Positions 1,095 to 42,927 of a DNA stretch of 64,000 nucleotides are shown here, piece by piece. The notes below the pieces were generated by a model. The model was not told the origin of the DNA, ran no database searches, and saw nothing but the letters and a program-made list of their open reading frames with translations. Location of the stretch: positions 3,257-67,256 of the forward strand of contig JACVGT010000008.1 in NCBI GenBank assembly GCA_018992685.1, read 5' to 3'. Numbering within the stretch: position 1 is the first letter of the stretch; each line of letters opens with the position of its first letter. The translations under genes and the position numbers were made by a program. The stretch is from Theionarchaea archaeon. GTDB taxonomy: Archaea > Methanobacteriota_B > Thermococci > Methanofastidiosales > SZ-28-30.

Positions 1095-2192
1095 ATGAAA
1101 CTGTACGAGTATGAAGCCAAGGAAATATTTGGCCAGAACGGCATTCCCATACCTCAGAGCAAGGTGATCACACAGCCATCAGAACTTGAAGCTGATTCTT
1201 TCCCCATAATGCTGAAAGCCCAGGTGCTCGTGGGAGGAAGAGGGAAGGCAGGAGGAGTCAAACTGGCCAAGACTGAAGCGGAAGCCAGAGAAGCTGCTGA
1301 AAGAATCTTATCCATGGAGATAAAGGGTATACCTGTTAAGAAACTTCTTGTATATCCTGCAGTGGACATCAAGAAGGAATACTATCTTGGATTCGTTGTG
1401 GATAGAAGTGCACGAAGTCTGGTGGCGATTGCTTCTTCAGAAGGTGGTATGGATATCGAAGAAGTGGCACAGAAGTCGCCCGAAAAGATTGCCAAGCTGC
1501 AGATCGATCCCATTCTCGGGTTGCAGTCATATGAAGCCAACGAGCTGGGAAGAAAAATCGGGTTAGAAGGAAAACCCCTGCTGCAGTTTTCCAAGATCGC
1601 CCTGAACCTGTACAAGATCTGCAAGAAATATGATGCTGAGCTCATTGAGATTAATCCTCTCGCTTGGTCTGAAGAGGGATTCTGTGCTGTGGATGCCAAG
1701 TTAAATGTGGATGATAACGCCCTGTACAGACAGAAATTCCAACCCAAAGCAGAGGAGTACACAGAACTGGAACGAATGGCAAAGGATGCGGGACTTTCAT
1801 ACGTGTCACTGGATGGGAATATTGCCATCATCGGGTGTGGTGCAGGACTGGTCATGGCCTCACTTGACATTATTCAGAAATATGGTGGAAGCCCAGCCAA
1901 TTTCCTGGATGTGGGTGGGGGAGCAAATGCAGAGAACATGAGACAGGCTCTTGATATTGTCACCCGACAGGAAGGGCTGAAGTCCATTTTCATCAACATC
2001 TTTGGCGGAATTACCAGATGCGATCAGATTGCGGAAGGGATTGTGGAGTTCTCTCCGAAAATTCCCATCTCAGTGAGGATGATGGGGACGAATGAGGAGC
2101 AGGGGAAGCAGATCCTGGATGAACACGGCTATCACGCCTTTGACAGTATGGCTGAAGCTGCGCAAAAGGCGGTAGAACTGTCTCAGGCATGA
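1095..2192 (+). CDS. sucC: Succinyl-CoA synthetase (ADP-forming) beta subunit
   Basis: 365 aa. The N-terminus '[20 protein letters not shown]' and the ATP-grasp plus CoA-ligase domains align along the full length with SucC. Confidence 0.9.
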
Positions 2193-2914: not shown

Positions 2915-4405
2915 ATGCAAAGACAGAAAGCAATCCTCCTGGCAGTGCTTCTGATCACGCCACCTCTGCTGGCAGCTGAAGGACCCCGGGGTCCACTGTG
3001 TGATCCCTTCCGTCCTGAAGTGGAAAACCACATTTGGTTCTGGTGGCCAGAAGGCATTGCTGGGTTTGAATTTGATGATTCTGGAACCTTATTATATATT
3101 GTGGATGGAATTCCTGCCCAATCTGGAGAACTCATTTCTTCCAGTGTGCAGAAAGAATTCCGGAAGTTACCATTAACTGGAGAATTTACCTTCTGGCGGC
3201 CCATAAAGAAGGATGGACTGGGTGGATTCTGGCTGAAGCATTTTGCAGTAAAGACCCTGAATCAGCCCTGGGGCACGGTCAGCCCGGGTGTAGATTACAA
3301 TTATCATCTCAACCTTGGGAAGAAGATAACAGAAATCAAGAGAGAAGATTTCAAATCGTTCAAAGAGCACCCCTTTGCGCAGGGCATGGGAGCCTACATA
3401 TGGAAAAAGGAAAGCTCTGAACTGTATGGTATAGAATTCGACACGAAAGGAGTTGCCAGGTACCTGGTCCATGGCATTCCGGGGGAATATTCCCTGGACG
3501 ATGTACCTCCCGACGGGTACATGACGTGGCAGCCTGTGGATTCAAAGAGTAAGGAGGGATACTGGCTGAAGCATGTTGCAGTGAGAGAACTGAGAATGCC
3601 TTGGGGAACGGTGTACCCTGGCATAGATTACCGGTTTCAATCAGAACATACTTTAGGGGAATTGACCCGAAGGCAGGCCGCAGAGTTCACTGACAACCCC
3701 TTCACTCCCGAATTGGCCAACCATATCTGGAAAAAGGAAGGGGACACGTTGCGTGGATTCAGATTCGATGAAAAAGGACATTTGCGGTACATGGTGGAGG
3801 GAATCAAGGGCTCATACACATTGGACGATGTGCCCTTTTCAGGAGAGTACACTGTGTGGGTTCCCGTCAGTCCCACCAGTTCCTCTGGATACTGGTTGAA
3901 CTATGCTGCAGTGGCTGAGTTCGAGATGCCCTGGGGAACGGTGCATCCTGGAATCGATTATAGATATGAAGATGGAAAATCTACCAAGGACCTGCCGAAG
4001 AGCAGTAAATTCACGTTCGAACCGTTTCCAGAGGGAGATTTGGAGAACCACATCTGGAGCCAGGAAATAGACTGTTTATACGGTGCGGAGTTCGACACTC
4101 AGGGGAATCTTCTGTACCTGGTTCATGGTGTGCCCGGCACCTACTCGCTCAATGATGTTCCCTTGTCAGGTGAGTATGTGGTATGGTACCCGCTCGAAGG
4201 AGGGGAACAGGAAGGGGTCTGGCTGAAGTATGTCGCAGTGAGGGAGGTTGACATGGAATGGGGTCCAGTGACCTATGGTATTGACCTCTCATACAATCAG
4301 CAGGAAGGCCACGGAATATCATTTCTGACCAGAGAGGACTACCACGAAAACTGGGACTTACTAAAGCTCTTGAAGTACTTCTGGGACGTTTTGATGGAAG
4401 ACTGA
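2915..4405 (+). CDS. Secreted protein with four tandem ~100-aa repeats of an uncharacterised domain
   Basis: N-terminal signal peptide MQRQKAILLAVLLITPPLLAAEG. There are four repeats, each with (E/A)NHIW...G(F/I)EFD...Y(L/I)V.GIPG.Y(S/T)LDDVP.(S/D)GEY..W.P...GYWL(K/N)(H/Y)(V/F)AV.E..MPWGTV.PGIDY. Confidence 0.7.
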   Translation: MQRQKAILLAVLLITPPLLAAEGPRGPLCDPFRPEVENHIWFWWPEGIAGFEFDDSGTLLYIVDGIPAQSGELISSSVQKEFRKLPLTGEFTFWRPIKKDGLGGFWLKHFAVKTLNQPWGTVSPGVDYNYHLNLGKKITEIKREDFKSFKEHPFAQGMGAYIWKKESSELYGIEFDTKGVARYLVHGIPGEYSLDDVPPDGYMTWQPVDSKSKEGYWLKHVAVRELRMPWGTVYPGIDYRFQSEHTLGELTRRQAAEFTDNPFTPELANHIWKKEGDTLRGFRFDEKGHLRYMVEGIKGSYTLDDVPFSGEYTVWVPVSPTSSSGYWLNYAAVAEFEMPWGTVHPGIDYRYEDGKSTKDLPKSSKFTFEPFPEGDLENHIWSQEIDCLYGAEFDTQGNLLYLVHGVPGTYSLNDVPLSGEYVVWYPLEGGEQEGVWLKYVAVREVDMEWGPVTYGIDLSYNQQEGHGISFLTREDYHENWDLLKLLKYFWDVLMED

Positions 4406-4463
4406 TGTGTCATTAGTAGTATCACCTGCTAGCTGCAGCTGCAGGAAACCTTGATAAGCACTG

Positions 4464-5222
4464 GTGAGTATCAGAATCATGGGAGGACCTGAAGCAAGTA
4501 TAGTGGAAGAAGCAGCACGCATTATTGATGCTGCCCATGACAATGACGTGACACTGAGGCTCCTGGGAGGGCTGGCCACCAGAATACACTGTGAACATGT
4601 GGACTTTTGCGACCGGGAGTACTCTGACATTGACATGGTGGGGCTCGGCAGAGAAAAGAGCAGGATCAGTATGTTGTTCTCAGCCCTGGGATACCTGCCC
4701 GATGAACGGTTCAATGCACTCCACGGCCACAAACGGCTGAAATTTGAAGAGACTGTGTACCACAGGCATGTGGATGTGTTTCTGGATCATTTTGACATGG
4801 ATCACGACTGGGACCTGTCCAGCAGACTGGATATTGAAAAGTACACGCTTCCTCTCAGTGATCTGCTTTTGACAAAACTCCAGATTTGCAAGATAAATGA
4901 AAAGGACATCCGGGACATACTCACCCTCCTGAAAGACTGCGCTATCGGTGAGGAAGACCTCCCTCACACCATAAACGTGGGATACATTGCAGAAAAATGC
5001 TCCGAAGACTGGGGATTATATGAAGCGGTGCTTGATAACCTGGAACATGTGGGTACATTTCTGGATACGTATGAATTGAGTGAAGAGGATAGGAATCTGG
5101 TGGAAAGGCGACTTAAACTCCTCACCAGGAACCTCATTTCACATCAGAAGACTGCCAGATGGAAGATGCGCTCTGCAGTGGGAAGACATCTGGCATGGTG
5201 CGAACAGGTAGAAGAAGAATAG
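4464..5222 (+). CDS. Hypothetical protein, possibly a nucleotidyltransferase-fold (NTP_transf_5-like) protein
   Basis: 252 aa. 'LLGGLATRIHC...EYSDIDMVG' resembles the G[GS]...D.D minimal NTase motif. The C-terminal half is helical. The assignment is weak. Confidence 0.3.
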   Translation: MSIRIMGGPEASIVEEAARIIDAAHDNDVTLRLLGGLATRIHCEHVDFCDREYSDIDMVGLGREKSRISMLFSALGYLPDERFNALHGHKRLKFEETVYHRHVDVFLDHFDMDHDWDLSSRLDIEKYTLPLSDLLLTKLQICKINEKDIRDILTLLKDCAIGEEDLPHTINVGYIAEKCSEDWGLYEAVLDNLEHVGTFLDTYELSEEDRNLVERRLKLLTRNLISHQKTARWKMRSAVGRHLAWCEQVEEE

Positions 5223-5267
5223 CTCTACTGTAACCTCACCTTTATATCTGCCATCAGAAGGTAGAGT

Positions 5268-6020
5268 ATGGAATCTCTCAAGGGAAAAACCGCTGTGATC
5301 ACGGGCAGCTCACGCGGCATTGGAAGAGGATGTGCTCTAGTACTTGCCAGATATGGCTGTAATATTGTGATAAATTACGTTGAATCTTCAGAAAAGGCAC
5401 AGGAAGTGGCAGAAGAGATCACGGGGCTGGGTGTGGAATCTCTCGTGGTAAGAGCGGATGTCTCCCGGGAGCAGGATGTCAAATCGATGATAGGGAGCGC
5501 AATCAGCACGTTTGGCGGAATAGATATCCTTGTCAATAATGCAGGCATTCACCAGCACCTCAAGACATGGGAACTCTCACTGGAGGATTGGAATAGAGTT
5601 ATTGCCACGAATCTGACGGGTGTATTCCTGTGTTCACGAGAAGCAGTTTCCCATATGAAGAAGGTAGGATCAGGATCAATCATTAACATTTCGTCGTGTG
5701 TGGCATTCACGGGTACGGATCATGAAATACACTACGCATCCACCAAGGCAGGTATTCTGGGATTTACCAAGAGTCTAGCTCTGGAGGTTGCCTCTTACAA
5801 CATACGAGTGAATGCCGTATCCCCCGGATTCTTTGCCACAGACATGGTTCTGCCTCTGATTACCAGCGAAGAAATGAAATCTTTGGAAACCAAAATCCCT
5901 CTGGGGAGATTGGGAGCTCCCGAGGATATTGGCAATGCCGTTGCTTTTCTGGCATCTGACAGGGCACAGTACATAACAGGGGAAGTACTGCACGTGAATG
6001 GCGGGCTGATAATGTACTAG
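5268..6020 (+). CDS. Short-chain dehydrogenase/reductase (FabG-like 3-oxoacyl reductase family)
   Basis: TGSSRGIGRG Rossmann motif, NNAG, and catalytic S...YxxxK (YASTKAG). 250 aa. Confidence 0.85.
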   Translation: MESLKGKTAVITGSSRGIGRGCALVLARYGCNIVINYVESSEKAQEVAEEITGLGVESLVVRADVSREQDVKSMIGSAISTFGGIDILVNNAGIHQHLKTWELSLEDWNRVIATNLTGVFLCSREAVSHMKKVGSGSIINISSCVAFTGTDHEIHYASTKAGILGFTKSLALEVASYNIRVNAVSPGFFATDMVLPLITSEEMKSLETKIPLGRLGAPEDIGNAVAFLASDRAQYITGEVLHVNGGLIMY

Positions 6021-7774: not shown

Positions 7775-9031
7775 ATGAAAGCAGTAAGACTCTTTATTGC
7801 AGGGATGCTCTTGGTTTCGTTCTTTACAGTTATTTCTGAGCCATCGCAGGCAGCTTCTGCCTCGTTGAACATTAACAAAGGATGTGGAGCCACCTACTAC
7901 CCCGGAGAAGTGGTGACCATCAGCTATAAGGTGACAGCAAATGCCTCAGCAACGGTAGTGGCTTCACTCAGAGTGCAACTGCCTGATTCATCGTGGTCAA
8001 CATTTTTCATCAACAGAAGCATTCTGCCCAATGTCACGTACTATGCATCTGGAGTAGCTGGTTCGAATCTGGGAGGGAGAACAGTAGTCTTCGAGTGGGA
8101 AGCCACCTACATGGGGACTGATGCTGGGTCAACATCATGTACGTATGTAGTCTCTTCAGGTGGAGGAACTTTCGGAACCACTTTACAGATCAATAGCAAT
8201 GTTTCGGGATTCCAGGTGTGGTGGGATGGCGTGTACAGCCATACAACACCCTATAACTACGCTCTTCTGTATAATGTGCCCTCGGGAACCCATGTGGTGA
8301 CCTTGAAGAAGTCAGGATGCACCGATGCAAGCAAGACAGTTTCCATTGTTCCAGCAACCGCAAACCAGGTGACCATCAACATGAGCTGCGGCTCGAGCGG
8401 TGGTACAGAAGAAGAAGCTGACATTGATGGTGATGGTGTTCCAGACGATGAAGACGGGTGCTACAATCCTGACTGCAATGTAGTAGATAGAAATGGCTGC
8501 CCCAAGGATTCAGACAGAGACGGTGTAAATGAATGTGATGATGACTGCCCCACAGAGGCGGGAAGTCCTTCCAACGAGGGATGTCCCGCAGGTGACAAAG
8601 ACAGCGACGGTGTGACTGATGATGAAGATGCCTGCTACAATCCTGAATGCTCAATAGTTGATTCCCAGGGATGTCCAAAGGATTCCGATGGTGATGGACT
8701 GAATGATTGTGCAGATGACTGTCCCGATGAAGAAGGGGACCGGAGGAATAGAGGATGTCCTGCTGAAGATTCTGACAGCGATGGTATAACTGATGACCAG
8801 GACAACTGCTACAACCCAGGATGCACGCTGGTGGATCCCCGAGGATGCCCACGAGACTCTGACAATGATGGAATGAATGACTGTGAGGACTATTGCCCCA
8901 ACCAAGCAGGTTCCCGGAGCAACAATGGGTGCCCAGAGCAACAGCAAGCTCCCCAGTTCTGTTTGGGATCGGGACTGCTGGCACTGCTGGTCTGTCTTGG
9001 AAGTGTGGGAAAAGTCTTGAAACGGAAATAG
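7775..9031 (+). CDS. Secreted surface protein. It has an N-terminal beta-rich domain, three thrombospondin type-3-like Ca-binding Cys repeats, and a C-terminal 'PQF' + TM + KRK anchor.
   Basis: Signal peptide MKAVRLFIAGMLLVSFFTVISEPSQA. Three ~54-aa repeats (D.D.DG..D..D.CYNP.C..VD..GCP.DSD.DG.N.C.D.CP). C-terminus 'QQQAPQFCLGSGLLALLVCLGSVGKVLKRK'. An AGGAGG Shine-Dalgarno lies 8 nt upstream. Confidence 0.75.
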   Translation: MKAVRLFIAGMLLVSFFTVISEPSQAASASLNINKGCGATYYPGEVVTISYKVTANASATVVASLRVQLPDSSWSTFFINRSILPNVTYYASGVAGSNLGGRTVVFEWEATYMGTDAGSTSCTYVVSSGGGTFGTTLQINSNVSGFQVWWDGVYSHTTPYNYALLYNVPSGTHVVTLKKSGCTDASKTVSIVPATANQVTINMSCGSSGGTEEEADIDGDGVPDDEDGCYNPDCNVVDRNGCPKDSDRDGVNECDDDCPTEAGSPSNEGCPAGDKDSDGVTDDEDACYNPECSIVDSQGCPKDSDGDGLNDCADDCPDEEGDRRNRGCPAEDSDSDGITDDQDNCYNPGCTLVDPRGCPRDSDNDGMNDCEDYCPNQAGSRSNNGCPEQQQAPQFCLGSGLLALLVCLGSVGKVLKRK

Positions 9032-10994: not shown

Positions 10995-12731
10995 ATGAAG
11001 ATTGTTCCTGATACCAGTATTGTCATTGACGGACGGTTGAAACGGTTTCTTGAACGCACCACGGTGGACGAAATCGTCCTCCCTGAGCTCGTCATTGCAG
11101 AAATAGAACATAATGCCAACAAAGGAACACGGATAGGCATCTCTGGGCTAGAGGAACTGGCTGAAGTCAGACAGTACTGTCTCATTAACCAGATAACGTT
11201 AACGTACTATGGGGGAAGGACGCAGGATTATCGAGATATGGATGAAAAAATCAGAAAAGTTGCAGAAGAAACAGATTCCATCCTGGTCACAGGGGATTTC
11301 GTCCAGGGAAAGATTGCAGAAGCCAAAGGGATTCCCTGCTTCATTCTGGAGAAAGACGTGGAAACTGAAATGAAAATTGAAGATTTCTTTGATCCCCAGA
11401 CACTTTCTGTTCACCTAAAAGAAGATCTACCCGTCCTCCTGAAGACAGGAAAACCAGGGGATATCGACCTGGTGAGAACCCAGCGAACACTGAACAAAGA
11501 AGAACTGGAGGCAATTGCACTGGACATTGTTGAAAGGGCCCGCCAATCTCAGGATTCTTTCATCGAACTGGATGAAAAAGGAGCGACTGTGGTCCAGCTA
11601 CGAGAGTACCGTATTGCCATCACCCAGCCACCATTCTCTGACCGCATGGAGATCACTGCAGTGAAACCATTGAAAAAATTGGGTCTACCAGAGTATTCCG
11701 TTTCAGACAGGCTGCTGAAGAGGCTGGAAAAAGCAGAGGGAATCCTGGTATCCGGATCTCCTGGTGCTGGGAAATCTACCTTTGTGCAGAGTCTGGCTGA
11801 ATTCTACAAAGACAAGGGTAAAATCGTCAAGACCATGGAGAGACCCAGAGATCTTCAAGTTTCTGAAGAGATCACTCAGTACACTGCTTTGAAGGGGTCT
11901 ATGGCCAAGACAGCAGACATTTTGCTGTTGACCAGGCCGGATTTCACCGTTTTTGATGAAATGCGCAGGACGGAGGACTTCCAGGTATTTGCTGACATGC
12001 GACTGGCTGGAGTGGGCATGGTGGGGGTGGTGCATGCGACAAATGCTATTGACGCAGTGCAGCGGTTTATTGGACGGATTGAACTGGGGATGATCCCACA
12101 GGTCATCGACACCATTATCCACATAGAGAATGGAGATATTGGCACAGTGCTAAACCTGACATTCTCAGTGAAAGTACCCGTCGGCATGAGTGAACCTGAC
12201 CTGGCCCGTCCTGTTATTGAGGCCAAGGACTTTGAATCAGGGGTGTGTGAATTCGAGATCTATTCATATGGAGAACAGATCGTGGTTATGCCCGTGAAAA
12301 AGCACAAACCCTCTCCCCCAAAGAAGATACTCAAGAATATAGACAAGTTCGTGGGAGTGGACTACCGGCTGGAACAGGTGGCACCCAACAGGGGTGTCCT
12401 GTACGTTCCAAAAGATGCCATGGCTGAGATTATCGGGAAAAAGGGAAGGACCATCTCTCAGATCGAAAAAGAAGTGAACATGAAACTGGACGTGAAGCCC
12501 ATGGAAGAGCAAATCCCGGCAACTCTTGATTTTACACGAAGGGGGGGACGTCTTTCTGTGAGCAGACGATACAGGAATATCCCTCTGACCTTTTACTGCC
12601 AGGGAGAGCCTCTCTTTTCTGCTACCGTGGGGAAAAAAGGAGTGATAAAGATCGATATGCAAAACAAGCTTGCACAGACGCTCCATGACATCTGGAGCAG
12701 GGGCGACACTGTTTATGCTAAGGAGGAATAG
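10995..12731 (+). CDS. PIN-domain / PhoH-PilT-like ATPase / KH-domain protein (COG1855 family)
   Basis: N-terminal PIN (MKIVPDTSIVIDG...), Walker A 'SGSPGAGKST', and a C-terminal KH motif 'IIGKKGRTISQIEKE'. 578 aa. Confidence 0.8.
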   Translation: MKIVPDTSIVIDGRLKRFLERTTVDEIVLPELVIAEIEHNANKGTRIGISGLEELAEVRQYCLINQITLTYYGGRTQDYRDMDEKIRKVAEETDSILVTGDFVQGKIAEAKGIPCFILEKDVETEMKIEDFFDPQTLSVHLKEDLPVLLKTGKPGDIDLVRTQRTLNKEELEAIALDIVERARQSQDSFIELDEKGATVVQLREYRIAITQPPFSDRMEITAVKPLKKLGLPEYSVSDRLLKRLEKAEGILVSGSPGAGKSTFVQSLAEFYKDKGKIVKTMERPRDLQVSEEITQYTALKGSMAKTADILLLTRPDFTVFDEMRRTEDFQVFADMRLAGVGMVGVVHATNAIDAVQRFIGRIELGMIPQVIDTIIHIENGDIGTVLNLTFSVKVPVGMSEPDLARPVIEAKDFESGVCEFEIYSYGEQIVVMPVKKHKPSPPKKILKNIDKFVGVDYRLEQVAPNRGVLYVPKDAMAEIIGKKGRTISQIEKEVNMKLDVKPMEEQIPATLDFTRRGGRLSVSRRYRNIPLTFYCQGEPLFSATVGKKGVIKIDMQNKLAQTLHDIWSRGDTVYAKEE

Positions 12732-12806
12732 TGCAGCTCTCTTGATTCCGGGGCACAGGTCGCATTCTACAACTATCTTTTTATACTTGCTACCGGATTA
12801 CAATCC

Positions 12807-13073
12807 ATGAAGCTGGTTAAAGAAGGTAAAGCTGGAACTAATGATGATTCTGACATTCTCATAGAAGTACAGCCTGCTGACACTGTCACGATTGAACTGG
12901 AAAGCAGAGTTAACACGTTGTATGGAAAGAAAATCCGGGAAGTCATTATGGAGACAGTGGAAACCCTCCAGGTAGAAGGGTGTGCCATTTCTGCCCATGA
13001 TAATGGAGCACTTGACTATACGATCCGTGCGCGCGTTGAAGCTGCAATACGACTGGCGGGAGGGATTGAATGA
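12807..13073 (+). CDS. citD: Citrate lyase acyl carrier protein (gamma subunit)
   Basis: 88 aa. 'MKLVKEGKAGTNDDSDILIEV...HDNGALDYTIRARVEAAIRLAG' aligns with E. coli CitD, including the prosthetic-group Ser14. Confidence 0.85.
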   Translation: MKLVKEGKAGTNDDSDILIEVQPADTVTIELESRVNTLYGKKIREVIMETVETLQVEGCAISAHDNGALDYTIRARVEAAIRLAGGIE

Positions 13074-13912
13074 TACGCAGATCTCGACTGTACATTCCTG
13101 GAAACAATCCCAAGATGATGCAGAGTGGCAAAGCATTGAACCCTGATGTCATTCTGCTGGACTTAGAGGACTCAGTCCCTCTACACGATAAATTGGCTGC
13201 ACGTCTCCTGGTGAGAGAGGCCATCACATTCCTGCAATTTAGAAAAGAAGTCATGGTGAGGATAAATCACTTCCCCATGGGAAAAGAGGATCTGAAAGAG
13301 GTTGTATGCGAGCAGGTGGATTCTGTTCTCTACCCAAAGTCGGAATCGTCTCAGGATATCGAAGAAGTTGCTGAACTGCTGGATGAATTGGAGAGCGCCA
13401 GATCACTCTCCAAGAGAATTGACATCGTGCCGGTAATTGAAACTGCCCGAGGGTGCCTGCGCTGTGAAGAAATCGCACTCTCGCCCAGGGTCTCTGCTAT
13501 CACTTTTGGAGCGGAGGACTTTGTGGCAGATATTGGAGGCACCAGAACCAGGGAAAGTCTGTTCCATGTGAAATCAACCCTTGCTGTTGCTGCTGCAGCA
13601 GCAGGGATCCAGGCCCTGGACACGGTATATCCTTTTATTGATGATGAGAAAGGGCTGAAAAAAGAAGCAGAAGAGAGCAAAGCCATGGGATTCTGCGGTA
13701 AGGGCGCCATCCACCCTCTGCAGCTGGCTGTAATCCATGAGGTATTCTCCCCGTCTGCAGAAGAGATAGCGTGGGCACAGAAGGTCATTGAAGCACTGAA
13801 AGATGCAGAAGAAAAGGGGAGAGCAGCTGCACAGCTTGAAGGACGGATGATTGATACGCCCACCTTGAAGAAAGCTCATCGCATCATGGAAACATACAAG
13901 GTGATGACGTGA
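13070..13912 (+). CDS. citE: Citrate lyase beta subunit (citryl-CoA lyase, HpcH/CitE family)
   Basis: 'RSRLYIPGNNPKMMQSG...DVILLDLEDSV' and 'GAEDFVADIGG' are CitE signatures. There is a 4-bp overlap with citD. Confidence 0.85.
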   Translation: MIRRSRLYIPGNNPKMMQSGKALNPDVILLDLEDSVPLHDKLAARLLVREAITFLQFRKEVMVRINHFPMGKEDLKEVVCEQVDSVLYPKSESSQDIEEVAELLDELESARSLSKRIDIVPVIETARGCLRCEEIALSPRVSAITFGAEDFVADIGGTRTRESLFHVKSTLAVAAAAAGIQALDTVYPFIDDEKGLKKEAEESKAMGFCGKGAIHPLQLAVIHEVFSPSAEEIAWAQKVIEALKDAEEKGRAAAQLEGRMIDTPTLKKAHRIMETYKVMT

Positions 13913-15441
13913 TTGTAAACGCTGCAGGCAGAACGCTCCCCGAGCAGATTGGAGGCCAGAAGGTTGAACCCTTCAGAGGAGCATTTGCCACACCTCCCCG
14001 GAAGAAGAGACTGTCTCCTAAGCTCTCGTACGTGAAACCCAGCGAGGACAAACTCATTTCTCTGGAAGATGCTGTCAAGAACTACGTGAAAGATGGCATG
14101 ACCATTTCGTTCCATCACCATCTGCGGGATGGGGACTACCTGGTGAACCAAGTGCTGGAGATGGTTTCCGACCTGGGGATCAAGGATATTGTCCTGGCAT
14201 CCACAGCACTCTTCCCCGTTCACGAACCTGTGGTGCAGCACCTGATGGAAGGCACCGTGCGCCGGATTGAAGGTAGTATGAATGGGCCGGTGGGAAGGGC
14301 GTGCTCTTTCGGACGCATGAAGGAAATAGCCACTCTCAGAGACCATGGGGGGAGAGCAGCTGCTGTTGAAATGGGAGACCTTCCCATTGATGTGGCCTTC
14401 ATTGCTGCTCCTACTGCAGACACCTACGGCAACTGCAATGGCGTCCACGGAAAATCAGCCTGTGGTCCCCTGGGTTATTCCTACCCAGACTCGCTCTACG
14501 CCAAGAAAGTCATTGCAGTCACTGACAACCTGGTAGAATATCCCGCAACCCCCATGAGCATCCATCAGACTCATGTGGATCACGTGGCTGAGATTGAAAC
14601 CATTGGGAATCCGGAACGAATAGTTTCAGGCACCACACAGGTCACCAGAAGTCCCACTAATTTGCAGATAGCAGATTTCGTGATAGAGACCATGGATGCT
14701 CTGGGAATTATCAGCAAAGGAGCTTCGATCCAGGCAGGCGCTGGAGGGATTTCCCTTTCTGTTACTTCTCAGATGGGAGATCTGATGGAAGACCGCCACG
14801 TGGTGGGCGGGTTTGGATTGGGGGGTGTTACCCAGTATCTGGTGGACATGCTGCACAGGGGGGTCATCCGAAAGATTCTGGATGCCCAGTGCTTTGATCT
14901 CACTGCAGTCCAGTCACTGCGGGAAGATCCCGATCATGTAGAAATCAACATGATCTACAGCAGCCCATACAACAAAGGGTCTGTATACAACCAGCTGGAC
15001 GCAGCGTTCCTGGGTGCTACAGAAGTGGATGTGGATTTCAATGTCAATGTCAACACCCATTCTGACGGACTGCTGCTTCATGGCATTGGGGGTCACCAGG
15101 GGCCTGCAGCCTGTGCCAAGGTCACCTTTATTACGGTACCCCTGTACAGAAAGAGAATTCCTGTGGTTCGGGACAGAGTAACAACAATTACCACTCCCGG
15201 AGAGGTCATTGATGTCATTGCCACAGAATACGGTATTGCTGTAAATCCCAGGCGAAAAGATATCCTGAAACAGGTTGAAAAAGCCAAGATACCAGTGCTG
15301 ACAATTGAAGAATTGAAAAAAGAAGCATATGACCTGTGTGGGGAGCCCGAACTTCCTGAAACCACAGATGACATTGTGGCTGCAATCCAGTGGAGAGACG
15401 GAACTGTCCTGGATACGGTAAAAAGAGTCGTGGAGACATAG
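13909..15441 (+). CDS. citF: Citrate lyase alpha subunit (citrate CoA-transferase)
   Basis: 510 aa with full-length similarity to CitF (PF04223). There is a 4-bp overlap with citE. Confidence 0.8.
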   Translation: MIVNAAGRTLPEQIGGQKVEPFRGAFATPPRKKRLSPKLSYVKPSEDKLISLEDAVKNYVKDGMTISFHHHLRDGDYLVNQVLEMVSDLGIKDIVLASTALFPVHEPVVQHLMEGTVRRIEGSMNGPVGRACSFGRMKEIATLRDHGGRAAAVEMGDLPIDVAFIAAPTADTYGNCNGVHGKSACGPLGYSYPDSLYAKKVIAVTDNLVEYPATPMSIHQTHVDHVAEIETIGNPERIVSGTTQVTRSPTNLQIADFVIETMDALGIISKGASIQAGAGGISLSVTSQMGDLMEDRHVVGGFGLGGVTQYLVDMLHRGVIRKILDAQCFDLTAVQSLREDPDHVEINMIYSSPYNKGSVYNQLDAAFLGATEVDVDFNVNVNTHSDGLLLHGIGGHQGPAACAKVTFITVPLYRKRIPVVRDRVTTITTPGEVIDVIATEYGIAVNPRRKDILKQVEKAKIPVLTIEELKKEAYDLCGEPELPETTDDIVAAIQWRDGTVLDTVKRVVET

Positions 15442-15482
15442 CGTGTCCCTTGCCCCCTCGCAACCCCAAGAGCCTGGAACCC

Positions 15483-16019
15483 ATGTTGATGGAGGACATC
15501 GAGCATTTTGCTGAATCCTGTTGCCAGCAGGATCCTGAAGACCCGCATCTTTTTGCTCACGTGCAGCTGGTAAGACAGTTTGCTGTGGAACTTGCCCGTT
15601 CCGAAACCGCAGACAGTGACGTGTGCGAGATAGCAGCCCTGCTCCATGATATTGGGAAGTGCACGGGAAGAAAAGATCATCACATAACTGGACGAGAGAT
15701 GGCAGAACACGTTCTGGAGACAGTCACCCTCCAACAGGAAAGGAAAGACCTGATTCTGAAGTGTATTGTGAACCGCAGAGCCATCCCTTCAGAGGATGAC
15801 GAGATTGAAGTCAGGATCGTGCAATCTGCTGACTGCCTGGGAGCACTCTTCCATGATGAATGGCAGGAGCACTGCAGGAAGACAATGTCTCGGGACGTAC
15901 TCATGCAGTTTTATAATGAAGGCTGCTTTCAAAGGCTCAGTATTGAATCTGCAAGAGCAATTGCCCTGCCCCGGCTGGAAATCCTGAAGGAACGGCTTAT
16001 CACAGAATCCTTCCACTGA
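15483..16019 (+). CDS. HD-domain phosphohydrolase. Probable start is MLMEDIEHF; the track ORF starts at 15390, overlapping citF.
   Basis: 'IAALLHDIGK...H' is an HD motif. The product is ~178 aa. Confidence 0.65.
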   Translation: MLMEDIEHFAESCCQQDPEDPHLFAHVQLVRQFAVELARSETADSDVCEIAALLHDIGKCTGRKDHHITGREMAEHVLETVTLQQERKDLILKCIVNRRAIPSEDDEIEVRIVQSADCLGALFHDEWQEHCRKTMSRDVLMQFYNEGCFQRLSIESARAIALPRLEILKERLITESFH

Positions 16020-16064
16020 CCCAGACCAGATGTATTCTCTCCGGGACACGGAATAGGACATGGG

Positions 16065-16658
16065 CTACCTGTGTTCTACAACATGCATGGCGAGATCTGC
16101 TAGGGTCTTCAGTATCAGAAACACCACCAGGGGAAGTGTCCCTGGCGAAATCACTCCAAAAACAATGATGACCAGATGCATGGGAAGGATACGAACGTAG
16201 GGAAAGAACATCACCCTGCCGATATTCGGTATCTTTTTCCTGTCCTGCCCCCTATTGTACCTGAATGAGAAGAAGTGATTAACTAGGAACACGAGAGATC
16301 CCAGTGCCACATACGGTATTTCAACGTGACCGCTCTGGGTAACCAGAAATGTCCCATAAATGAAGTGAAAGAACCCATAGTGGAGAGAGAAGAAAGTGGC
16401 CACCTGGCGTCTGGTCTTTGCAGTGGGAGGAACAGACTGATGGTTCATTGTGAACCCTTCTGTTGAGAACTTCTGCAGTGATAGAATGCGCGCGACATTG
16501 AACCCTCCAAGAATGACACTCTGGACCCAGTATACCGTCATGAGGGTACGCAGAGACCATGGTTCAACGAGAGCACAAACAATGGTGACGCCGTTGGAGA
16601 AAAGGAGCACCCAGAAGGATACGTCTTTATAGAAGTGTACAGGTCCTGGGTTGTTCAT
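16065..16658 (-). CDS. Hypothetical polytopic membrane protein
   Basis: 197 aa with 5-6 predicted TM helices. No recognisable motif. Confidence 0.5.
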   Translation of the reverse strand: MNNPGPVHFYKDVSFWVLLFSNGVTIVCALVEPWSLRTLMTVYWVQSVILGGFNVARILSLQKFSTEGFTMNHQSVPPTAKTRRQVATFFSLHYGFFHFIYGTFLVTQSGHVEIPYVALGSLVFLVNHFFSFRYNRGQDRKKIPNIGRVMFFPYVRILPMHLVIIVFGVISPGTLPLVVFLILKTLADLAMHVVEHR

Positions 16659-16737
16659 GCATGCACTCTAAGAGCAGCTATAAAAGGATTTCTTTCCTAT
16701 TTCTGGCTGTAACCCCCTCTGCTGTAAACCTTTAAAT

Positions 16738-17319
16738 ATGTCAACTGCCCAGACATACAAATGGATCCAGTTCGTGCAGCACGGATCGACAGGAGGGACT
16801 ACCATGAATGAAGAATATCTCAGAAAGACATTTCCTCAAATAGATCTCATAAAAGACCCTGATCTCAGAAAAAAAGTCATTTCTACATTCTTAAAGACTG
16901 CTCAGAGTGGAGGCTGGGATACGCTTGAAGGAATACCTTTCACCCTGCTCACCGATACATCAGTTACCTTTGCGGACCATACCAAGGCAGTGACTGACAT
17001 GGCTGTCCACTGTGCAGATGTCATGCAGAAGTTCGTTCCCATCAACCGGGACTATGTGGTGGCAGGTGGGCTCTTACACGACGTGGGAAAGCTGCTGGAA
17101 TATCAGAAGAAAGAAGGGAAGGTCACCCAGAGCAGGTATGGTGCCTTGCTGCGGCATCCCGTGTCCGGTGCAGTCATTGCTGGTGAAGTCGGTCTTCCCC
17201 CGGAGATCATCCACATTATTAGTGCCCACTCCAAAGAAGGTGATGCTGTCAAGAGAATTCCTGAAGCCATCATCATCCATCACTGCGATTTCGTACACTT
17301 TGAGAGTTTGAAGAAATAG
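16738..17319 (+). CDS. HD-domain phosphohydrolase
   Basis: 'VAGGLLHDVGKLLEY...IISAHSKEGD...IIHHCDF' gives HD-domain metal ligands. 193 aa. Confidence 0.7.
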   Translation: MSTAQTYKWIQFVQHGSTGGTTMNEEYLRKTFPQIDLIKDPDLRKKVISTFLKTAQSGGWDTLEGIPFTLLTDTSVTFADHTKAVTDMAVHCADVMQKFVPINRDYVVAGGLLHDVGKLLEYQKKEGKVTQSRYGALLRHPVSGAVIAGEVGLPPEIIHIISAHSKEGDAVKRIPEAIIIHHCDFVHFESLKK

Positions 17320-17404
17320 ACTGTTGCAGGTACCCCGTGAGACCTTCATACTCGAGTCAGGAGAACCAGGCTGCCCCGGGAATCTGCAATATTTATATTG
17401 ATAT

Positions 17405-18808
17405 ATGAGAATGCGTGCTGGAGGTTTTCTCATGGAATCTATCAGTCAAAAAATGGCACAATTCGCCCTCCGCCTGGAGTATAAGGACATCCCTCCAGAG
17501 GCGGTGAAGGAGGCTAAACGATTCCTCCTGGACAGCATCGGATGTGCCCTGGCTGCCTGTCATAATGAGGACATGGATAATGCAGTGCAGTATATTACAA
17601 ATTTAGGCGGGCACCCACAATCCACCATCATTGGATATGGACACAAAACCAACATGCCAAATGCAGCCCTGATGAACTCTCTTCTCATACGAGCTCTTGA
17701 TTACAATGACATCTACTGGAAGCAGGACCCGTCTCACCCTTCAGATATTATTCCCGCTGCCCTATGTCCTGGTGAATACCGACACTGCTCTGGAAAAGAG
17801 CTGATCACCAGTATTGTCATTGCGTATGAACTTGAGATGCGCCTGTGTCTGGCAGCTCATCCCGGTGTGCGGGAAGTCGGGTGGCACCATGCTACCCTGA
17901 CCCAGTTCGTCAGCCCCATCGTGGCAGGCGTCTCCCTGGGATTGACAGAGGAACAGATAGTGGCTGCTGTGGGCATCTCTGGATCTTCTCACTCCACCTT
18001 CGGTGGCGTGGTGGCAGGAGCTCTCACCAACATGAAGAACACGGCAGATCCCATGGCGACAGAAGCGGGTGTGCGGGCAGCCATGCTCGCTCAAACGGGA
18101 TATACAGGACCTGTCCACGTGTATGAAGGAAAAGAGGGGTTGTTCCAGGTCATCAACAATGTCAAGTGGGATGAATCCATACTTACTGAGCATCTGGGCA
18201 CGGACTTTCTGATTACCCAGTGTGAGTACAAGGCCTTCCCCACTGAAGCCTTGACCCATCAGCCAATAACTGCTGTCTTAACCCTCATGGAGGAGAACAC
18301 CGTTGACCCACACCAGGTCACAGAAATCCTCGTTGAAACTACCACACGGGGAGCTGACATTCTGTCTGATCCCTCAAAGTACAACCCCACCACCAAGGAG
18401 ACAGCTGATCACTCCCTTCCCTACTGTATTGCGGTAGCTGCAGCCAAGGGGAACGTACTGCCCAGTGACTTTGAGGAACAAGCACTCTTTGACCCTCTGG
18501 TGCGGGAGTTGATCAAAAAGGTGAAAGTGGTCGCCAATCCGGAAATTGATTCCCTCTTCCCCAAGATCAAGCGTGCCGTCTGTTCCATAACCACCAAAGA
18601 GGGAAAGACGTACACGAGACAGGAAGATTTCGCCAGGGGAAGCACAGGATATCCCATGACAGACCAAGAGCTCGTCAGCAAGTTCAAAGCGAACTCAGGT
18701 ACTCAGATGTCAGAATCACGTCTTGAAAAGATTACGGATGCCACCTTCAACTGCGAAAAGTTCACAGATATCACCGATTACATGGAAATCCTTGTTAGCG
18801 ACCTGTAA
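17405..18808 (+). CDS. MmgE/PrpD-family protein (2-methylcitrate dehydratase / cis-aconitate decarboxylase superfamily)
   Basis: 467 aa with full-length PrpD-like architecture ('RFLLDSIGCALAA...ALMNSLLIRALDYNDIY'). The probable start is MESISQK at 17432. Confidence 0.8.
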   Translation: MRMRAGGFLMESISQKMAQFALRLEYKDIPPEAVKEAKRFLLDSIGCALAACHNEDMDNAVQYITNLGGHPQSTIIGYGHKTNMPNAALMNSLLIRALDYNDIYWKQDPSHPSDIIPAALCPGEYRHCSGKELITSIVIAYELEMRLCLAAHPGVREVGWHHATLTQFVSPIVAGVSLGLTEEQIVAAVGISGSSHSTFGGVVAGALTNMKNTADPMATEAGVRAAMLAQTGYTGPVHVYEGKEGLFQVINNVKWDESILTEHLGTDFLITQCEYKAFPTEALTHQPITAVLTLMEENTVDPHQVTEILVETTTRGADILSDPSKYNPTTKETADHSLPYCIAVAAAKGNVLPSDFEEQALFDPLVRELIKKVKVVANPEIDSLFPKIKRAVCSITTKEGKTYTRQEDFARGSTGYPMTDQELVSKFKANSGTQMSESRLEKITDATFNCEKFTDITDYMEILVSDL

Positions 18809-30748: not shown

Positions 30749-31327
30749 ATGAGAACCCTGGAGGGGATACCCATGATAGTGTACAGTAGCCCGAGCCCAG
30801 AAGAGATTGAGGAAGACCTTGAGGAGATTCTGAGAGAACTTGGGTACATTAGGTCAGAGTACCCACCTACCGTTCCTCTCCCTGTATCCAAGGCAGTGCT
30901 GATCATTTTTGTTCTTGTTCTCATGCTTCTCCTGACGTATCTGGTGGTAACCTGGATTTCACGTCCCTCGGGAAAAGTCACTATCCCCCGGAAAAGAGAA
31001 GAAGAAATTCTGGTGAAAAAAAAGGATTACTATGGACTGTACAAGACAGCCCTGACCCTGGGATCTAGAAAGGAGTATGCAGAAGCAGTACGCATTCTAT
31101 ACATGGCACTCCTTGTGCTCCTAGACACTCAGAATGTAATTTCATATCATCCATCTTTAACAAACTATGAGTACAGGCAGAAAGTTCATGCCTACGCTTT
31201 CAGTGGCCTCTTCAACAGGATGACCAGCATCTTTGACGTTGTATACTACGGTGGTACTCCTGCAACAGGACATGACTTTTCCCAGTGCGTGGAAGCTTTC
31301 ACGCACATTCAGGAGGCGCTATCATGA
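30749..31327 (+). CDS. DUF4129-domain membrane-anchored protein
   Basis: One TM then 'DYYGLYKTALTLGSRKEYAEAVRILYMALLVLLDTQNVISYHPSLTNYEYRQ', typical of DUF4129. 192 aa. Confidence 0.6.
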   Translation: MRTLEGIPMIVYSSPSPEEIEEDLEEILRELGYIRSEYPPTVPLPVSKAVLIIFVLVLMLLLTYLVVTWISRPSGKVTIPRKREEEILVKKKDYYGLYKTALTLGSRKEYAEAVRILYMALLVLLDTQNVISYHPSLTNYEYRQKVHAYAFSGLFNRMTSIFDVVYYGGTPATGHDFSQCVEAFTHIQEALS

Positions 31328-32250
31328 AGTGGGCACATGTTCTCACACTCGTGGTGTTCGTGGTGGGAGTGGTGTCAGTGGCTGTCATTGCAGAACAAGT
31401 CAATCTCCCGCCTGCTCATTCTTCAAAAGACGCTGAAGAAATGGGAACCCTGGCCTTTTACCTGCTGATGGAAAAGTACACGGAAGTGGAACGAATTAAA
31501 GACACCATAGAAGCGTTGGATCCCGGAAGCCTCCTTCTGATCTATCCTGTTCGACCCCTGGCTCCAGAAGAAAAGGAACATGTACTCACCTGGGTGAAGG
31601 AGGGGAACAGACTGATCATATTCACTGAATCGCCTGAAATAGCAGAGGATTTTGGAGTGAACATCACCCCAGCCGAGGACGGACTGGCCTCAATAACCCC
31701 CAATGATCACTGGTCAACCAGAGATGTCCACATGGTCAGGGTTCGCTATCAGCAGTCCATCGACACCGATGTCAATATCATCCTGGCTGATGCTGAGAAT
31801 GTCCTGGCAGCAGAAATCCCATATGGATTGGGAGAAATCGTCGTCATCACTTGTACCTCACTGGTTGAAAATTATTCTATTGACCGGGCTGATAATGAGA
31901 TATTCCTGGTCCGGCTATCCCTCTCTGAGAAAGTGTATTTTGACGAGTACCACCTCTACCTGATTGATCAGTCAACGGGGATGACTCTCAGCAAGATCAA
32001 GACTGCATTTTCCTCCAGGTACAGCTCGTTTTTCATTCAATTGATCATTACAATTACCATATTCATGGTGAGCTATGGTAAGCGATTTGGGAAGGCAAGA
32101 CCATCTGTTACCAGGGGCGTACAGTCCTCGCAACTGGTGACTTCTGCAGCAGAACTGTACTACAGGGCACGGAAAAAGGAAATTCTGGATCTGATTGAAG
32201 CCCATTCCCCGCTTATTCACAGCAATAAAAACTCTGATATAAAGCCCTGA
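31324..32250 (+). CDS. DUF4350-like protein with N- and C-terminal TM anchors. Probable start is MKWAHVL (ATGA overlap); the track ORF starts at 31285.
   Basis: N-terminal TM, a large extracytoplasmic domain and a C-terminal TM. Position and topology match DUF4350 partners of MoxR/DUF58. Confidence 0.5.
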   Translation: MKWAHVLTLVVFVVGVVSVAVIAEQVNLPPAHSSKDAEEMGTLAFYLLMEKYTEVERIKDTIEALDPGSLLLIYPVRPLAPEEKEHVLTWVKEGNRLIIFTESPEIAEDFGVNITPAEDGLASITPNDHWSTRDVHMVRVRYQQSIDTDVNIILADAENVLAAEIPYGLGEIVVITCTSLVENYSIDRADNEIFLVRLSLSEKVYFDEYHLYLIDQSTGMTLSKIKTAFSSRYSSFFIQLIITITIFMVSYGKRFGKARPSVTRGVQSSQLVTSAAELYYRARKKEILDLIEAHSPLIHSNKNSDIKP

Positions 32251-32263
32251 GAGGTGAAAAAAA

Positions 32264-33205
32264 GTGTTTAATGATGTGGTAACCCAGATGAAAACGGAAC
32301 TCCACAAAGTCATTGTGGGGTATGATTCACTTCTGGAATTGCTGTTGGTTTCCTTCTTCTCTTCTGGACACTGTCTCCTGGAAGGAGTGCCGGGGACAGC
32401 CAAGACCTTGATGGTGAGAGCGTTGTCCAAGATACTGAGTCTTGATTTCTGTAGAATTCAGTTCACTCCGGATTTGATGCCTTCAGACATTATTGGAACC
32501 AATGTCTTTGACTTGGACACGGGGACATTCCACCTGAAGAAAGGTCCCATCTTCACCAATCTGCTCCTTGCCGATGAAATCAACAGGGCCCCTCCCAAGA
32601 CACAGGCTGCTTTGCTGGAAGCCATGGAAGAACGACAGGTGACCATAGATGGAGTGACGCATCCTCTTTGTGAGTTCATGGTATGTGCCACTCAGAACCC
32701 CATTGAGTACGAAGGAACCTATCCTCTACCTGAGGCGCAGCTGGACCGGTTCATGATGAAATTGGCGGTCCCCTATCCTGACATCAAGGAAGAGGTTGAC
32801 ATACTCCAGCTCTATCAGACGGGGTTTGATGCACATAACTTGGATGCCATCCACTTTGACTACCGTGTGGACCAGGAACAGATTGAGGCTATCAGGAAGG
32901 AGATCTTCCAGGTGAGAATTCAGCCTGAGGTCATGGAGTACATCACCAGGATTGTCAGAGCCACCAGAGAGTCACCTCACGTTGTCCTGGGTGCCAGCCC
33001 TCGAGCATCTGTGGTGCTCTTCCAGACGGCAAAGAGTTTTACAGCCATGCAGGACGAACAATTCGTTACTCCTGATACTGTGAAACGGATGGCTTTTCCT
33101 GTGATGCGCCACCGGATTATTCTGAAACCTGAAGCTGAAATTGAAGGGTTGACAGCAGACCAAGTGATTGCAGAGTGCCTGGAAAAGGTGGAGGTGCCCC
33201 GGTAG
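32264..33205 (+). CDS. MoxR-family AAA+ ATPase
   Basis: 'LLEGVPGTAKT' Walker A, 'LLADEINRAPPKTQAALLEAMEE' Walker B/sensor. 313 aa. Confidence 0.9.
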   Translation: MFNDVVTQMKTELHKVIVGYDSLLELLLVSFFSSGHCLLEGVPGTAKTLMVRALSKILSLDFCRIQFTPDLMPSDIIGTNVFDLDTGTFHLKKGPIFTNLLLADEINRAPPKTQAALLEAMEERQVTIDGVTHPLCEFMVCATQNPIEYEGTYPLPEAQLDRFMMKLAVPYPDIKEEVDILQLYQTGFDAHNLDAIHFDYRVDQEQIEAIRKEIFQVRIQPEVMEYITRIVRATRESPHVVLGASPRASVVLFQTAKSFTAMQDEQFVTPDTVKRMAFPVMRHRIILKPEAEIEGLTADQVIAECLEKVEVPR

Positions 33206-42501: not shown

Positions 42502-42927
42502 GAAGGTACATGCTTGAGAACAGATAAAAAGCTTTGCTATCAAATGAAGGAGGTCTATTCTGTGATATGTCCAGCAGAGAGCGTACTTTACATATATCAA
42601 GGTTCAGAGGTACCTATCATCTTCATATACCCTGAGACCTCATACTCTACATATACCAAGGCCCCAAAGTGATATTCAGGTAGAATTTATGTCACATTAT
42701 GCTTCTCATGGAGCAGAAGGAGCATACATTCCTGTTAACAGTATTCGGTGAGCGGTGGATAATTCTCAAGGAATGTCTCCCTGGGACGCAAGGGTGAGGA
42801 CTCTGAATTCGGGAAGGTCCTGGGTTCTCTATCCACCTCACCCGGTCAACCACAGGTCTGGAGACTACTCCACGATGAGCTTCAAGCTGCAAAACCTTTA
42901 ATAAAGAGCTGCAACAAGAGAGAACAA

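Follow-up and report, generated by a model that had tools for sequence, protein, structure and literature searches.

The window analyzed here is a 64-kb stretch of DNA from a metagenome-assembled genome (MAG) of Theionarchaea. It carries the three genes of a citrate-lyase-type complex (CitDEF), followed by the genes of two HD-domain proteins (HD1 and HD2), which are separated by a DUF6498 membrane protein gene on the other strand, and by the gene of a protein of the MmgE/PrpD family, which we call PrpD-like. A preliminary description of the window had read a gamma–beta–alpha trio with 4-bp overlaps at this place, and two HD proteins, a membrane protein and a PrpD-family protein downstream of citF; the open reading frames (ORFs) and the Pfam matches (ACP/MdcD, HpcH_HpaI and CitF in the case of the trio) agree with it. 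The genes, in window coordinates, are the following:

12807–13073, plus strand: citD, citrate lyase gamma subunit (acyl carrier protein), 88 amino acids (Pfam PF06857, 2.2e-23)
13070–13912, plus strand: citE, citryl-thioester lyase beta subunit, 280 amino acids (Pfam HpcH_HpaI, 3.2e-47)
13909–15441, plus strand: citF, citrate CoA/ACP-transferase alpha subunit, 510 amino acids, GTG start (Pfam CitF, 1.8e-147)
15483–16019, plus strand: HD1, generic HD-domain hydrolase, 178 amino acids, the ORF being also readable from a GTG at 15390 (Pfam HD, 3.6e-12)
16065–16658, minus strand: DUF6498 membrane protein, 197 amino acids (Pfam PF20108, 1.6e-40)
16804–17319, plus strand: HD2, HDIG-type hydrolase, 171 amino acids (Pfam HD and NCBIfam HDIG)
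17432–18808, plus strand: MmgE/PrpD-family protein, 458 amino acids, the ORF being also readable from 17405 (PF03972, 4.2e-70; PF19305, 1.6e-38)

The citD/citE and citE/citF junctions are 4-bp overlaps, so that the trio consists of three coupled ORFs. In an identical contig (L001) the gene call of HD1 begins at the ATG. A protein identical to the CitF of the window is named "citrate lyase subunit alpha [Theionarchaea archaeon]" and is encoded on contig JACVGO010000092 of assembly GCA_018992765.1.

CitF scores above the cutoff of the citF equivalog model (TIGR01584, 550.2 bits vs 501.45), is 41% identical to CitF of E. coli and matches PDB entry 2hj0 (9e-137). CitD is also above the cutoffs of its models (NCBIfam NF009726, 87.2 bits vs 65; TIGR01608, 70.5 vs 63.5) and is 37% identical to the E. 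coli protein. CitE is 34% identical to E. coli CitE, and the motifs DLEDS, RIN, IET and GAEDF are kept in both. The citE equivalog model is its best-scoring NCBIfam model, although the score stays below the cutoff (TIGR01588, 226.7 bits vs 443.4); the model of RipC, a lyase of itaconate degradation, gives 164.9 bits, and the best PDB match by sequence is CLYBL (167 bits).

Such a trio had been thought unusual in archaea. This does not hold, since homologues of CitF that are 50–56% identical occur in MAGs of Thermoplasmata, Thermoproteales, Euryarchaeota and Thermoplasmatota, and CitF is also found in Aciduliprofundum boonei: the 90%-identity cluster of the CitF of locus L012 includes a protein of the cultured strain A. 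boonei T469. A scan of genome contigs with CitF returned one locus, on the same Theionarchaea contig as L004. In a Thermoplasmatota contig (L014, 8001–11191), a lone CitF, without CitD, CitE or HD2, is directly followed by the large and small subunits of an aconitase-family enzyme. A paper from 2006 describes archaeal citrate lyases as little known (PMC1403158), and our literature search for archaeal citX or citG and for the citrate lyase of Aciduliprofundum found nothing relevant.

The region between citF and HD2 is variable. HD1 is missing from the relatives L003, L009 and L006, whose CitF are 91%, 75% and 71% identical to that of the window. HD1 is unrelated to HD2 beyond the HD motif (BLASTP E 0.12) and its PDB matches are weak, all of them to uncharacterised HD hydrolases. 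We considered HD1 as a partner of the lyase and rejected it, as it is neither conserved nor related to HD2. The DUF6498 gene also follows citF directly, on the opposite strand, in L009 (5812–6468, minus strand; 57% identical), and is absent from L003 and L006. Between citF and HD2, L003 has a different gene and L006 has none. HD1 and DUF6498 are thus lineage-specific genes of a variable spacer and do not belong to the conserved module. Since HD2 stands next to citF in L006 and L013, the original order was probably citD-citE-citF-HD2.

The conservation of HD2 is of another kind. The protein is 91% identical to that of the window in L003. In L006 it is 62% identical and starts 3 nt after citF. 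In L013, which has a citD–citE fusion and a CitF of just 56% identity, HD2 is 45% identical and its gene overlaps the stop codon of citF by 4 bp. The order citD-E-F-HD2 is found in L006, L013 and L019, whose CitF are 54–71% identical to that of the window. We scanned metagenomes with a search seeded with the HD2 alignment, and joined the results with look-ups of individual contigs to establish the arrangements. CitF is encoded on the contig of 5 of the 18 true members of the HD2 family, against none of 42 unrelated HD loci (Fisher p = 0.0016). The arrangements are the following:

L019: CitD/E, CitF, HD2, aconitase large subunit
L016: HD2, CitF
L021 (bacterial): DASS di/tricarboxylate transporter, HD2, CitD, CitE, CitF, LysR
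L018: HD2, CitF, citryl-CoA lyase, aconitase
L075 (Methanobacteriota): citryl-CoA lyase, HD2, CitF
L076 (Thermoplasmatales): HD2, CitF, citryl-CoA lyase
L017 and L023: HD2, aconitase large/small subunit (then Iso_dh in L023)
L077 (Eisenbacteria): Iso_dh, aconitase large/small subunit, HD2
L027: HD2, aconitase, and further on CitD-E-F
L079/L080 (Acetothermia): HD2 (50% identical), a protein like the beta subunit of succinyl-CoA synthetase (SCS), a fusion of SCS-alpha and citryl-CoA lyase, PrpD-like (69% identical), in a tight operon

Many of the junctions of HD2 are 4-bp overlaps. The pair encoded between HD2 and PrpD-like in L079/L080 has the architecture of ATP-citrate lyase. In L018, L075 and L076 the short proteins that resemble citrate synthase score above the NCBIfam cutoffs for "citryl-CoA lyase". 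These loci are hybrid modules, in which the CoA-transferase CitF has as its companion a short citryl-CoA lyase with the fold of citrate synthase, in place of CitE and CitD. An AcnX beside HD2 in L076 was considered as one more link to aconitase and was discounted: its large and small subunits (3990–5560) lie 1.5 kb from the citrate genes, are unrelated to them, and stand together with GHMP kinase, UbiD and LpdD, as is the case for type II AcnX. Type II AcnX is reported to belong to the modified mevalonate pathway of archaea (PMC8184944, PMC10040528).

The proteins related to HD2 form a compact family, about 170 amino acids long, with 1,173 database hits, mainly in Thermoplasmatota and in the Theionarchaea/Methanofastidiosia group, and also in some bacteria. 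It has the complete H..HD..H..H..D motif of the HDIG type, with an HDxGK signature. The metal ligands H59, H92-D93, H118, H142 and D162 do not vary among 46 sequences, and the invariant residues as a whole are H59, H92-D93, K96, E99, R117-H118, H142, E145, H160 and D162; the motif is consistent with a two-metal site. The AlphaFold2 model (predicted local distance difference test score, pLDDT, of 96.5) is helical, and the ligands and the all-helical fold are those of the HD-domain phosphohydrolase superfamily. By Foldseek, the model comes closest to the HD domain of the exoribonuclease YhaM (E 8e-6, 20% identity), and generic HD phosphodiesterases come next; a search of the HD2 profile against PDB sequences returned YhaM alone (E 0.008). 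No profile match to a characterised HD subfamily was found in NCBIfam or in the search against the PDB. Since Foldseek returns generic HD folds and the profile gives a single weak match, the fold says that HD2 is a hydrolase and leaves its substrate unspecified. The HDxGK signature, the conserved arginine and the full metal motif suggest that this substrate may be a phosphoester of the nucleotide or CoA kind. HD2 shares the HD fold and the full metal motif, including HDxGK, with the HD domain of YhaM and with PgpH. Unlike these, it is a single domain of 170 amino acids and its gene neighbors those of citrate enzymes, not those of nucleotide or RNA enzymes.

The PrpD-like protein carries both domains of the MmgE/PrpD superfamily and clearly belongs to it; to our knowledge, all characterised MmgE/PrpD members bind aconitate-related polycarboxylates. 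Its scores are far below the equivalog cutoffs for PrpD (88 bits vs 458 and 105 vs 575 for TIGR02330 and PRK09425). In the PDB it is roughly equidistant from iminodisuccinate (IDS) epimerase (108 bits), IRG1/CAD (88–104 bits) and PrpD (74 bits). The preliminary description had put forward a comparison of the active site with, among others, that of IRG1/CAD. In an alignment with cis-aconitate decarboxylase, SHPS, WHH, NMK and YKAFP are at corresponding positions and the shared His/His/Lys/Lys set is kept, but the same positions are shared with the structure of IDS epimerase, and the set therefore gives no choice between functions. We discarded the catalytic residues as a guide to the function of PrpD-like for this reason.

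The PrpD-like subfamily is strikingly conserved, with 68–70% identity between the protein of the window and those of Bipolaricaulota/Acetothermia and Atribacteria. An Iso_dh gene lies directly upstream of it in the bacterial locus L078. Eight values of "longest contig" are common to the lists of HD2 and PrpD-like hits, some of just 3.4–5.8 kb, which hints indirectly that the two genes are frequently adjacent. In L018, L019 and L027 an aconitase-family dehydratase occupies the place of PrpD-like. PrpD-like therefore probably fills the slot of an aconitase-type dehydratase and is a candidate tricarboxylate dehydratase. E. coli PrpD, which is a 2-methylcitrate dehydratase, also dehydrates citrate. 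Like PrpD, IRG1 and IDS epimerase, the protein of the window has both domains and the four shared residues; unlike that of PrpD, its gene neighbors citrate-cleavage genes or Iso_dh, and not prpBCE. The window itself contains an Iso_dh-family gene (59255–60367, minus strand) which is below all equivalog cutoffs, the best score being that for isopropylmalate dehydrogenase (IPMDH; 332.6 vs 393). It could encode the dehydrogenase downstream of the PrpD-like step, though it is 40 kb away.

We propose that a citrate-handling module found in several anaerobic lineages of archaea and bacteria has its Theionarchaea version in this locus, and we give this reading a probability of about 0.55. In terms of gene neighborhoods, whose conservation extends across phyla, HD2 and PrpD-like would be functional partners of the lyase and not chance neighbors. 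The preliminary description had linked all the HD and PrpD genes to citDEF; this stands for HD2, which abuts citF in distant lineages, and for the HD2/PrpD-like pair, which brackets an enzyme of the ATP-citrate-lyase type in Acetothermia, and falls for HD1, which is not conserved. The same two partner families are found around CitDEF, around CitF with citryl-CoA lyase and around the ATP-citrate-lyase type, which points to citrate as the common substrate. Citrate, rather than an analogue, is thus the likely substrate of the lyase in the window, as judged from these associations. Interchangeable enzymes for one step of a conserved module would give the pattern that is seen in the neighborhoods of HD2 and PrpD-like.

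In this module, as their families would predict, CitF may shift the thiol carrier from an acetyl group to citrate, with release of acetate, and CitE may cleave the citryl thioester into oxaloacetate and the regenerated acetyl thioester. PrpD-like would most likely interconvert citrate and cis-aconitate, possibly also isocitrate, and would tie citrate cleavage to the isocitrate/2-oxoglutarate branch. HD2 may be an accessory or regulatory enzyme of the metabolism of citrate and CoA thioesters, whichever enzyme cleaves citrate; the coupling of its gene to those of CitF, citryl-CoA lyase and ATP-citrate lyase suggests that its role is tied to CoA-thioester-dependent citrate cleavage. The thermodynamics of citrate lyase strongly favor cleavage, and it is therefore more plausible that the module drains citrate to oxaloacetate and acetate than that it makes citrate. 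The citrate might come from uptake, or from the reductive carboxylation of 2-oxoglutarate produced by the breakdown of amino acids, if the flux runs in that direction.

Several observations weigh against this proposal. CitE is under the cutoff of the citE equivalog, and human citramalyl-CoA lyase, CLYBL, scores equal to E. coli CitE. Citrate genes are missing from the vicinity of HD2 in about half of the informative loci (L020, L022, L031), so that the link between HD2 and citrate genes, though strong, is not obligatory. Conversely, citDEF occurs with neither HD2 nor PrpD nearby in L009, a 75% relative, and in the Aciduliprofundum-type L012. The aconitase-like and Iso_dh genes that are linked to HD2 are of the isopropylmalate isomerase (IPMI)/homoaconitase and IPMDH-like types, whose substrates are ambiguous. 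In Theionarchaea the synteny covers the region as a whole, from a PINA-like ATPase on the upstream side to TrxR-like and AsnC genes on the downstream side, and the adjacency of PrpD in it proves little alone. Last, the gene on the opposite strand separates HD2 and PrpD from citDEF in the window, which means that they do not form one transcript.

How the lyase would obtain its thiol carrier is a distinct matter. Where the preliminary description saw the conserved prosthetic-group serine of CitD, the alignment with the E. coli protein gives a different picture: Ser14 of E. coli CitD (LES14GD) aligns without gap with Asp14 of the window CitD, whose serine, Ser15 (DDS15D), sits one residue past the canonical position. 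Among the 145 CitD representatives that are nearest to that of the window, 108 have Ser14, 17 have Ser15 only (the class of the window) and 20 have neither, which means that about a quarter (37/145) lack the canonical Ser14. All the members of the Theionarchaea clade (the window, L003, L006, L009, P0361 and P0362) have a serine at position 14 or 15. Serine-less CitD, which have xK[GEDN]D where others have LES[SG]D, are found in L012, L013 (in a CitD::CitE fusion), L021, P0373, P0384, P0402, P0407, P0412, P0413, P0416, P0418, P0423, P0427, P0507 and others; CitD::CitE fusions are recurrent (L013, P0375, P0418, P0452, P0507).

The claim that the 64-kb window contains no citC, citX or citG is borne out. 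When CitC, CitX and CitG of E. coli were searched with phmmer against all six-frame ORFs of the window of at least 50 amino acids, none had a match, and only CitD, CitE and CitF were matched; none of the three families appears in the Pfam scans of about 50 window ORFs, and none is found within 8–10 kb of citDEF in the eight related loci L003, L006, L009, L012, L013, L019, L021 and L027. Either citX and citG lie in another part of the genome, or free acetyl-CoA serves the complex as carrier.

This second possibility, which concerns the carrier alone and is compatible with the citrate-handling module, supposes that citC, citX and citG are truly absent, that CitF is an acetyl-CoA:citrate CoA-transferase and CitE a citryl-CoA lyase, and that CitD is merely structural. 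We give it a fairly low probability for the genome of the window. When isolated, the alpha and beta subunits of the bacterial enzyme accept free CoA thioesters, the helper genes are missing from the vicinity of citDEF in all nine loci (the window and its eight relatives), and in the sister modules CitF is joined to an enzyme of free CoA, citryl-CoA lyase, in the absence of CitD or CitE. In addition, 37 of the 145 CitD lack Ser14, 20 of them with no serine at 14 or 15 (including those of L012, L013 and L021). On the contrary, CitD is kept and translationally coupled to CitE, citX and citG could be unlinked and lie beyond the window, and the serine at position 14 or 15, always present in Theionarchaea, looks like the result of selection for an attachment site. 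This last point fits the conventional situation, in which citX, citG and citC are encoded elsewhere. The use of free acetyl-CoA is likelier in the lineages with a serine-less CitD than in the genome of the window.

A more speculative and rather unlikely extension is that anaerobic archaea and candidate bacterial phyla share a toolkit made of a prosthetic-group-free, CoA-dependent lyase, an Fe–S-free aconitase substitute of the PrpD type and a dedicated HD hydrolase that would be a general partner of the enzymes that cleave citrate, ATP-citrate lyase among them. The serine-less CitD, the CitD::CitE fusions and the hybrids of CitF and citryl-CoA lyase are supporting signs of a CoA-dependent lyase that works without CitC, CitX and CitG.

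The preliminary description favored another substrate: the complex would be the lyase of a citrate analogue (citramalate, 2-methylcitrate or an itaconate-related acid), and PrpD a methylcitrate dehydratase or an aconitate decarboxylase in the same pathway. The citramalate lyase of Clostridium tetanomorphum (EC 4.1.3.22) is a three-subunit complex similar to citrate lyase, and would have the same thioester chemistry. The score of CitE, below the citE cutoff while RipC and CLYBL score well, speaks for an analogue, as do the PrpD-like protein, which is no further from IRG1/CAD than from PrpD and retains the four shared residues (His/His/Lys/Lys), and the aconitase-family genes linked to HD2, whose IPMI/homoaconitase type is able to act on citramalate-like acids. 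We nevertheless consider an analogue to be improbable. Both CitF and CitD are above the cutoffs of the citrate lyase equivalogs. The partners are the same as those of citrate and citryl-CoA enzymes: the HD2/PrpD-like pair flanks the ATP-citrate-lyase type, and HD2 flanks CitF with citryl-CoA lyase. The genes found in the same contexts (citryl-CoA lyase, ATP-citrate-lyase type, DASS transporter) also speak for citrate. The conserved residues of PrpD-like do not discriminate, being also present in IDS epimerase. The Pfam scans of the window ORFs revealed neither the methylcitrate-cycle genes prpB, prpC and prpE nor a citramalate synthase, a mesaconase or an itaconate CoA-transferase.

Yet another view would be that there is no functional link at all, that the lyase is conventional, with citC, citX and citG elsewhere, and that HD1, DUF6498, HD2 and PrpD stay together because of recent common ancestry. 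The synteny in Theionarchaea is long indeed, and it includes genes that are clearly unrelated, among which the TrxR-like and AsnC genes and the PINA-like ATPase. The latter, an ATPase with PIN and KH domains (10995–12731, plus strand), is the upstream neighbor of citD; it matches PRK13764, does not reach the cutoff of the model for the Holliday-junction ATPase PINA, and immediately precedes citD in all the Theionarchaea-type loci (L003, L006, L009). L009 and L012, with no HD2 or PrpD beside citDEF, are also as expected if the link were fortuitous. Against this, HD2 is repeatedly found next to genes for citrate cleavage in different phyla, with overlaps of 4 bp (L013, L075, L076, L079 and the bacterial L021), and none of the 42 control HD loci has citrate-lyase genes; we therefore find a purely accidental grouping hard to credit.

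Finally, it is very improbable that the HD proteins are the maturation factors that the preliminary description supposed, that is, non-orthologous replacements of CitX and CitG (or CitC) that build or attach the prosthetic group of CitD: their position beside citDEF, the lack of citC, citX and citG in the window and the translational coupling of HD2 to citF in L013 would be in favor of it, but HD1 is not conserved even in the 91% relative, HD2 accompanies CitD-less systems (CitF with citryl-CoA lyase, the ATP-citrate-lyase type, loci with only aconitase and Iso_dh) and CitD without the attachment serine (L013, L021), and hence is not a substitute of CitX or CitG, the HD proteins have no similarity to E. 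coli CitX or CitG by phmmer among the window ORFs, and the fold and motifs of HD2 are those of HD proteins, with nuclease and phosphodiesterase matches, and do not point to a chemistry of the CitX/CitG type, while CitG and CitX catalyze transferase reactions.

The locus can be compared with the systems that are known to cleave citrate. With citCDEFXG of E. coli and Klebsiella pneumoniae (EC 4.1.3.6) it shares the gamma–beta–alpha order and the coupling of the genes, with identities of 37%, 34% and 41%. It differs in that neither the window nor its eight relatives have a nearby citC (acetate:SH-citrate lyase ligase), citX or citG, in the shift by one residue of the CitD serine, in the score of CitE, under the equivalog cutoff, and in the presence of the HD2 and PrpD-like partners, neither of which is in the E. 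coli operon. With ATP-citrate lyase, and with citryl-CoA synthetase and lyase, which operate in the reductive tricarboxylic acid (TCA) cycle, it has in common the overall conversion of citrate to oxaloacetate and an acetyl unit. In Acetothermia the pair of the ATP-citrate-lyase type stands between the same partner families, HD2 and PrpD-like, and citryl-CoA lyase itself is found with CitF and HD2 in L018, L075 and L076. CitDEF differs from ATP-citrate lyase in being independent of ATP and non-homologous to the synthetase part, and in that the acetyl unit leaves as acetate and not as acetyl-CoA. A preprint lists Theionarchaea among the taxa that have homologues of citryl-CoA synthetase and citryl-CoA lyase (CCS/CCL) and possibly a complete reductive TCA cycle (10.1101/2022.10.25.513756). 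Our literature search for an HD or PrpD-like protein tied to citrate lyase or ATP-citrate lyase found no paper.

A few other genes of the window can be mentioned. A succinyl-CoA ligase beta subunit (1095–2192, plus strand) is above the cutoff of NCBIfam NF001913 (445.6 vs 370) but is not accompanied by an alpha subunit; L079 of Acetothermia has a similarly isolated SucC (12059–13189). The gene at 40663–42600 (minus strand) codes for a reductive activator of corrinoid iron–sulfur protein, of the RACo type, which suggests a pathway of the Wood–Ljungdahl type in this organism. A secreted or membrane-anchored protein with four Asp/Cys-rich, thrombospondin type 3-like repeats (DSDGDG..CP) is encoded at 7775–9031 (plus strand) and is kept in L003, and a gene set comprising DUF4350, a MoxR AAA ATPase and DUF58/VWA lies at 31285–34488 (plus strand).

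Anaerobic carbon metabolism branches at citrate cleavage, which serves in the fermentation of citrate and of amino acids and in the reductive TCA cycle. The possible leads from this locus are the HD2 family, PrpD-like as a candidate aconitase substitute, and independence from the prosthetic group. If the associations hold, a place in metabolism could be assigned to an HD family that is so far uncharacterised and to the highly conserved subfamily of PrpD-like proteins. The metabolic reconstructions of Theionarchaea, Thermoplasmatota, Acetothermia and Atribacteria, in which aconitase is "missing" or a 2-methylcitrate dehydratase is annotated, would need revision. Whether citrate lyase needs its unusual prosthetic group and CitC, CitX and CitG, as textbooks state, would become directly testable, and A. 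boonei, which is cultured and fully sequenced and whose CitF falls in the 90%-identity cluster of the serine-less L012, is a candidate organism for such a test.

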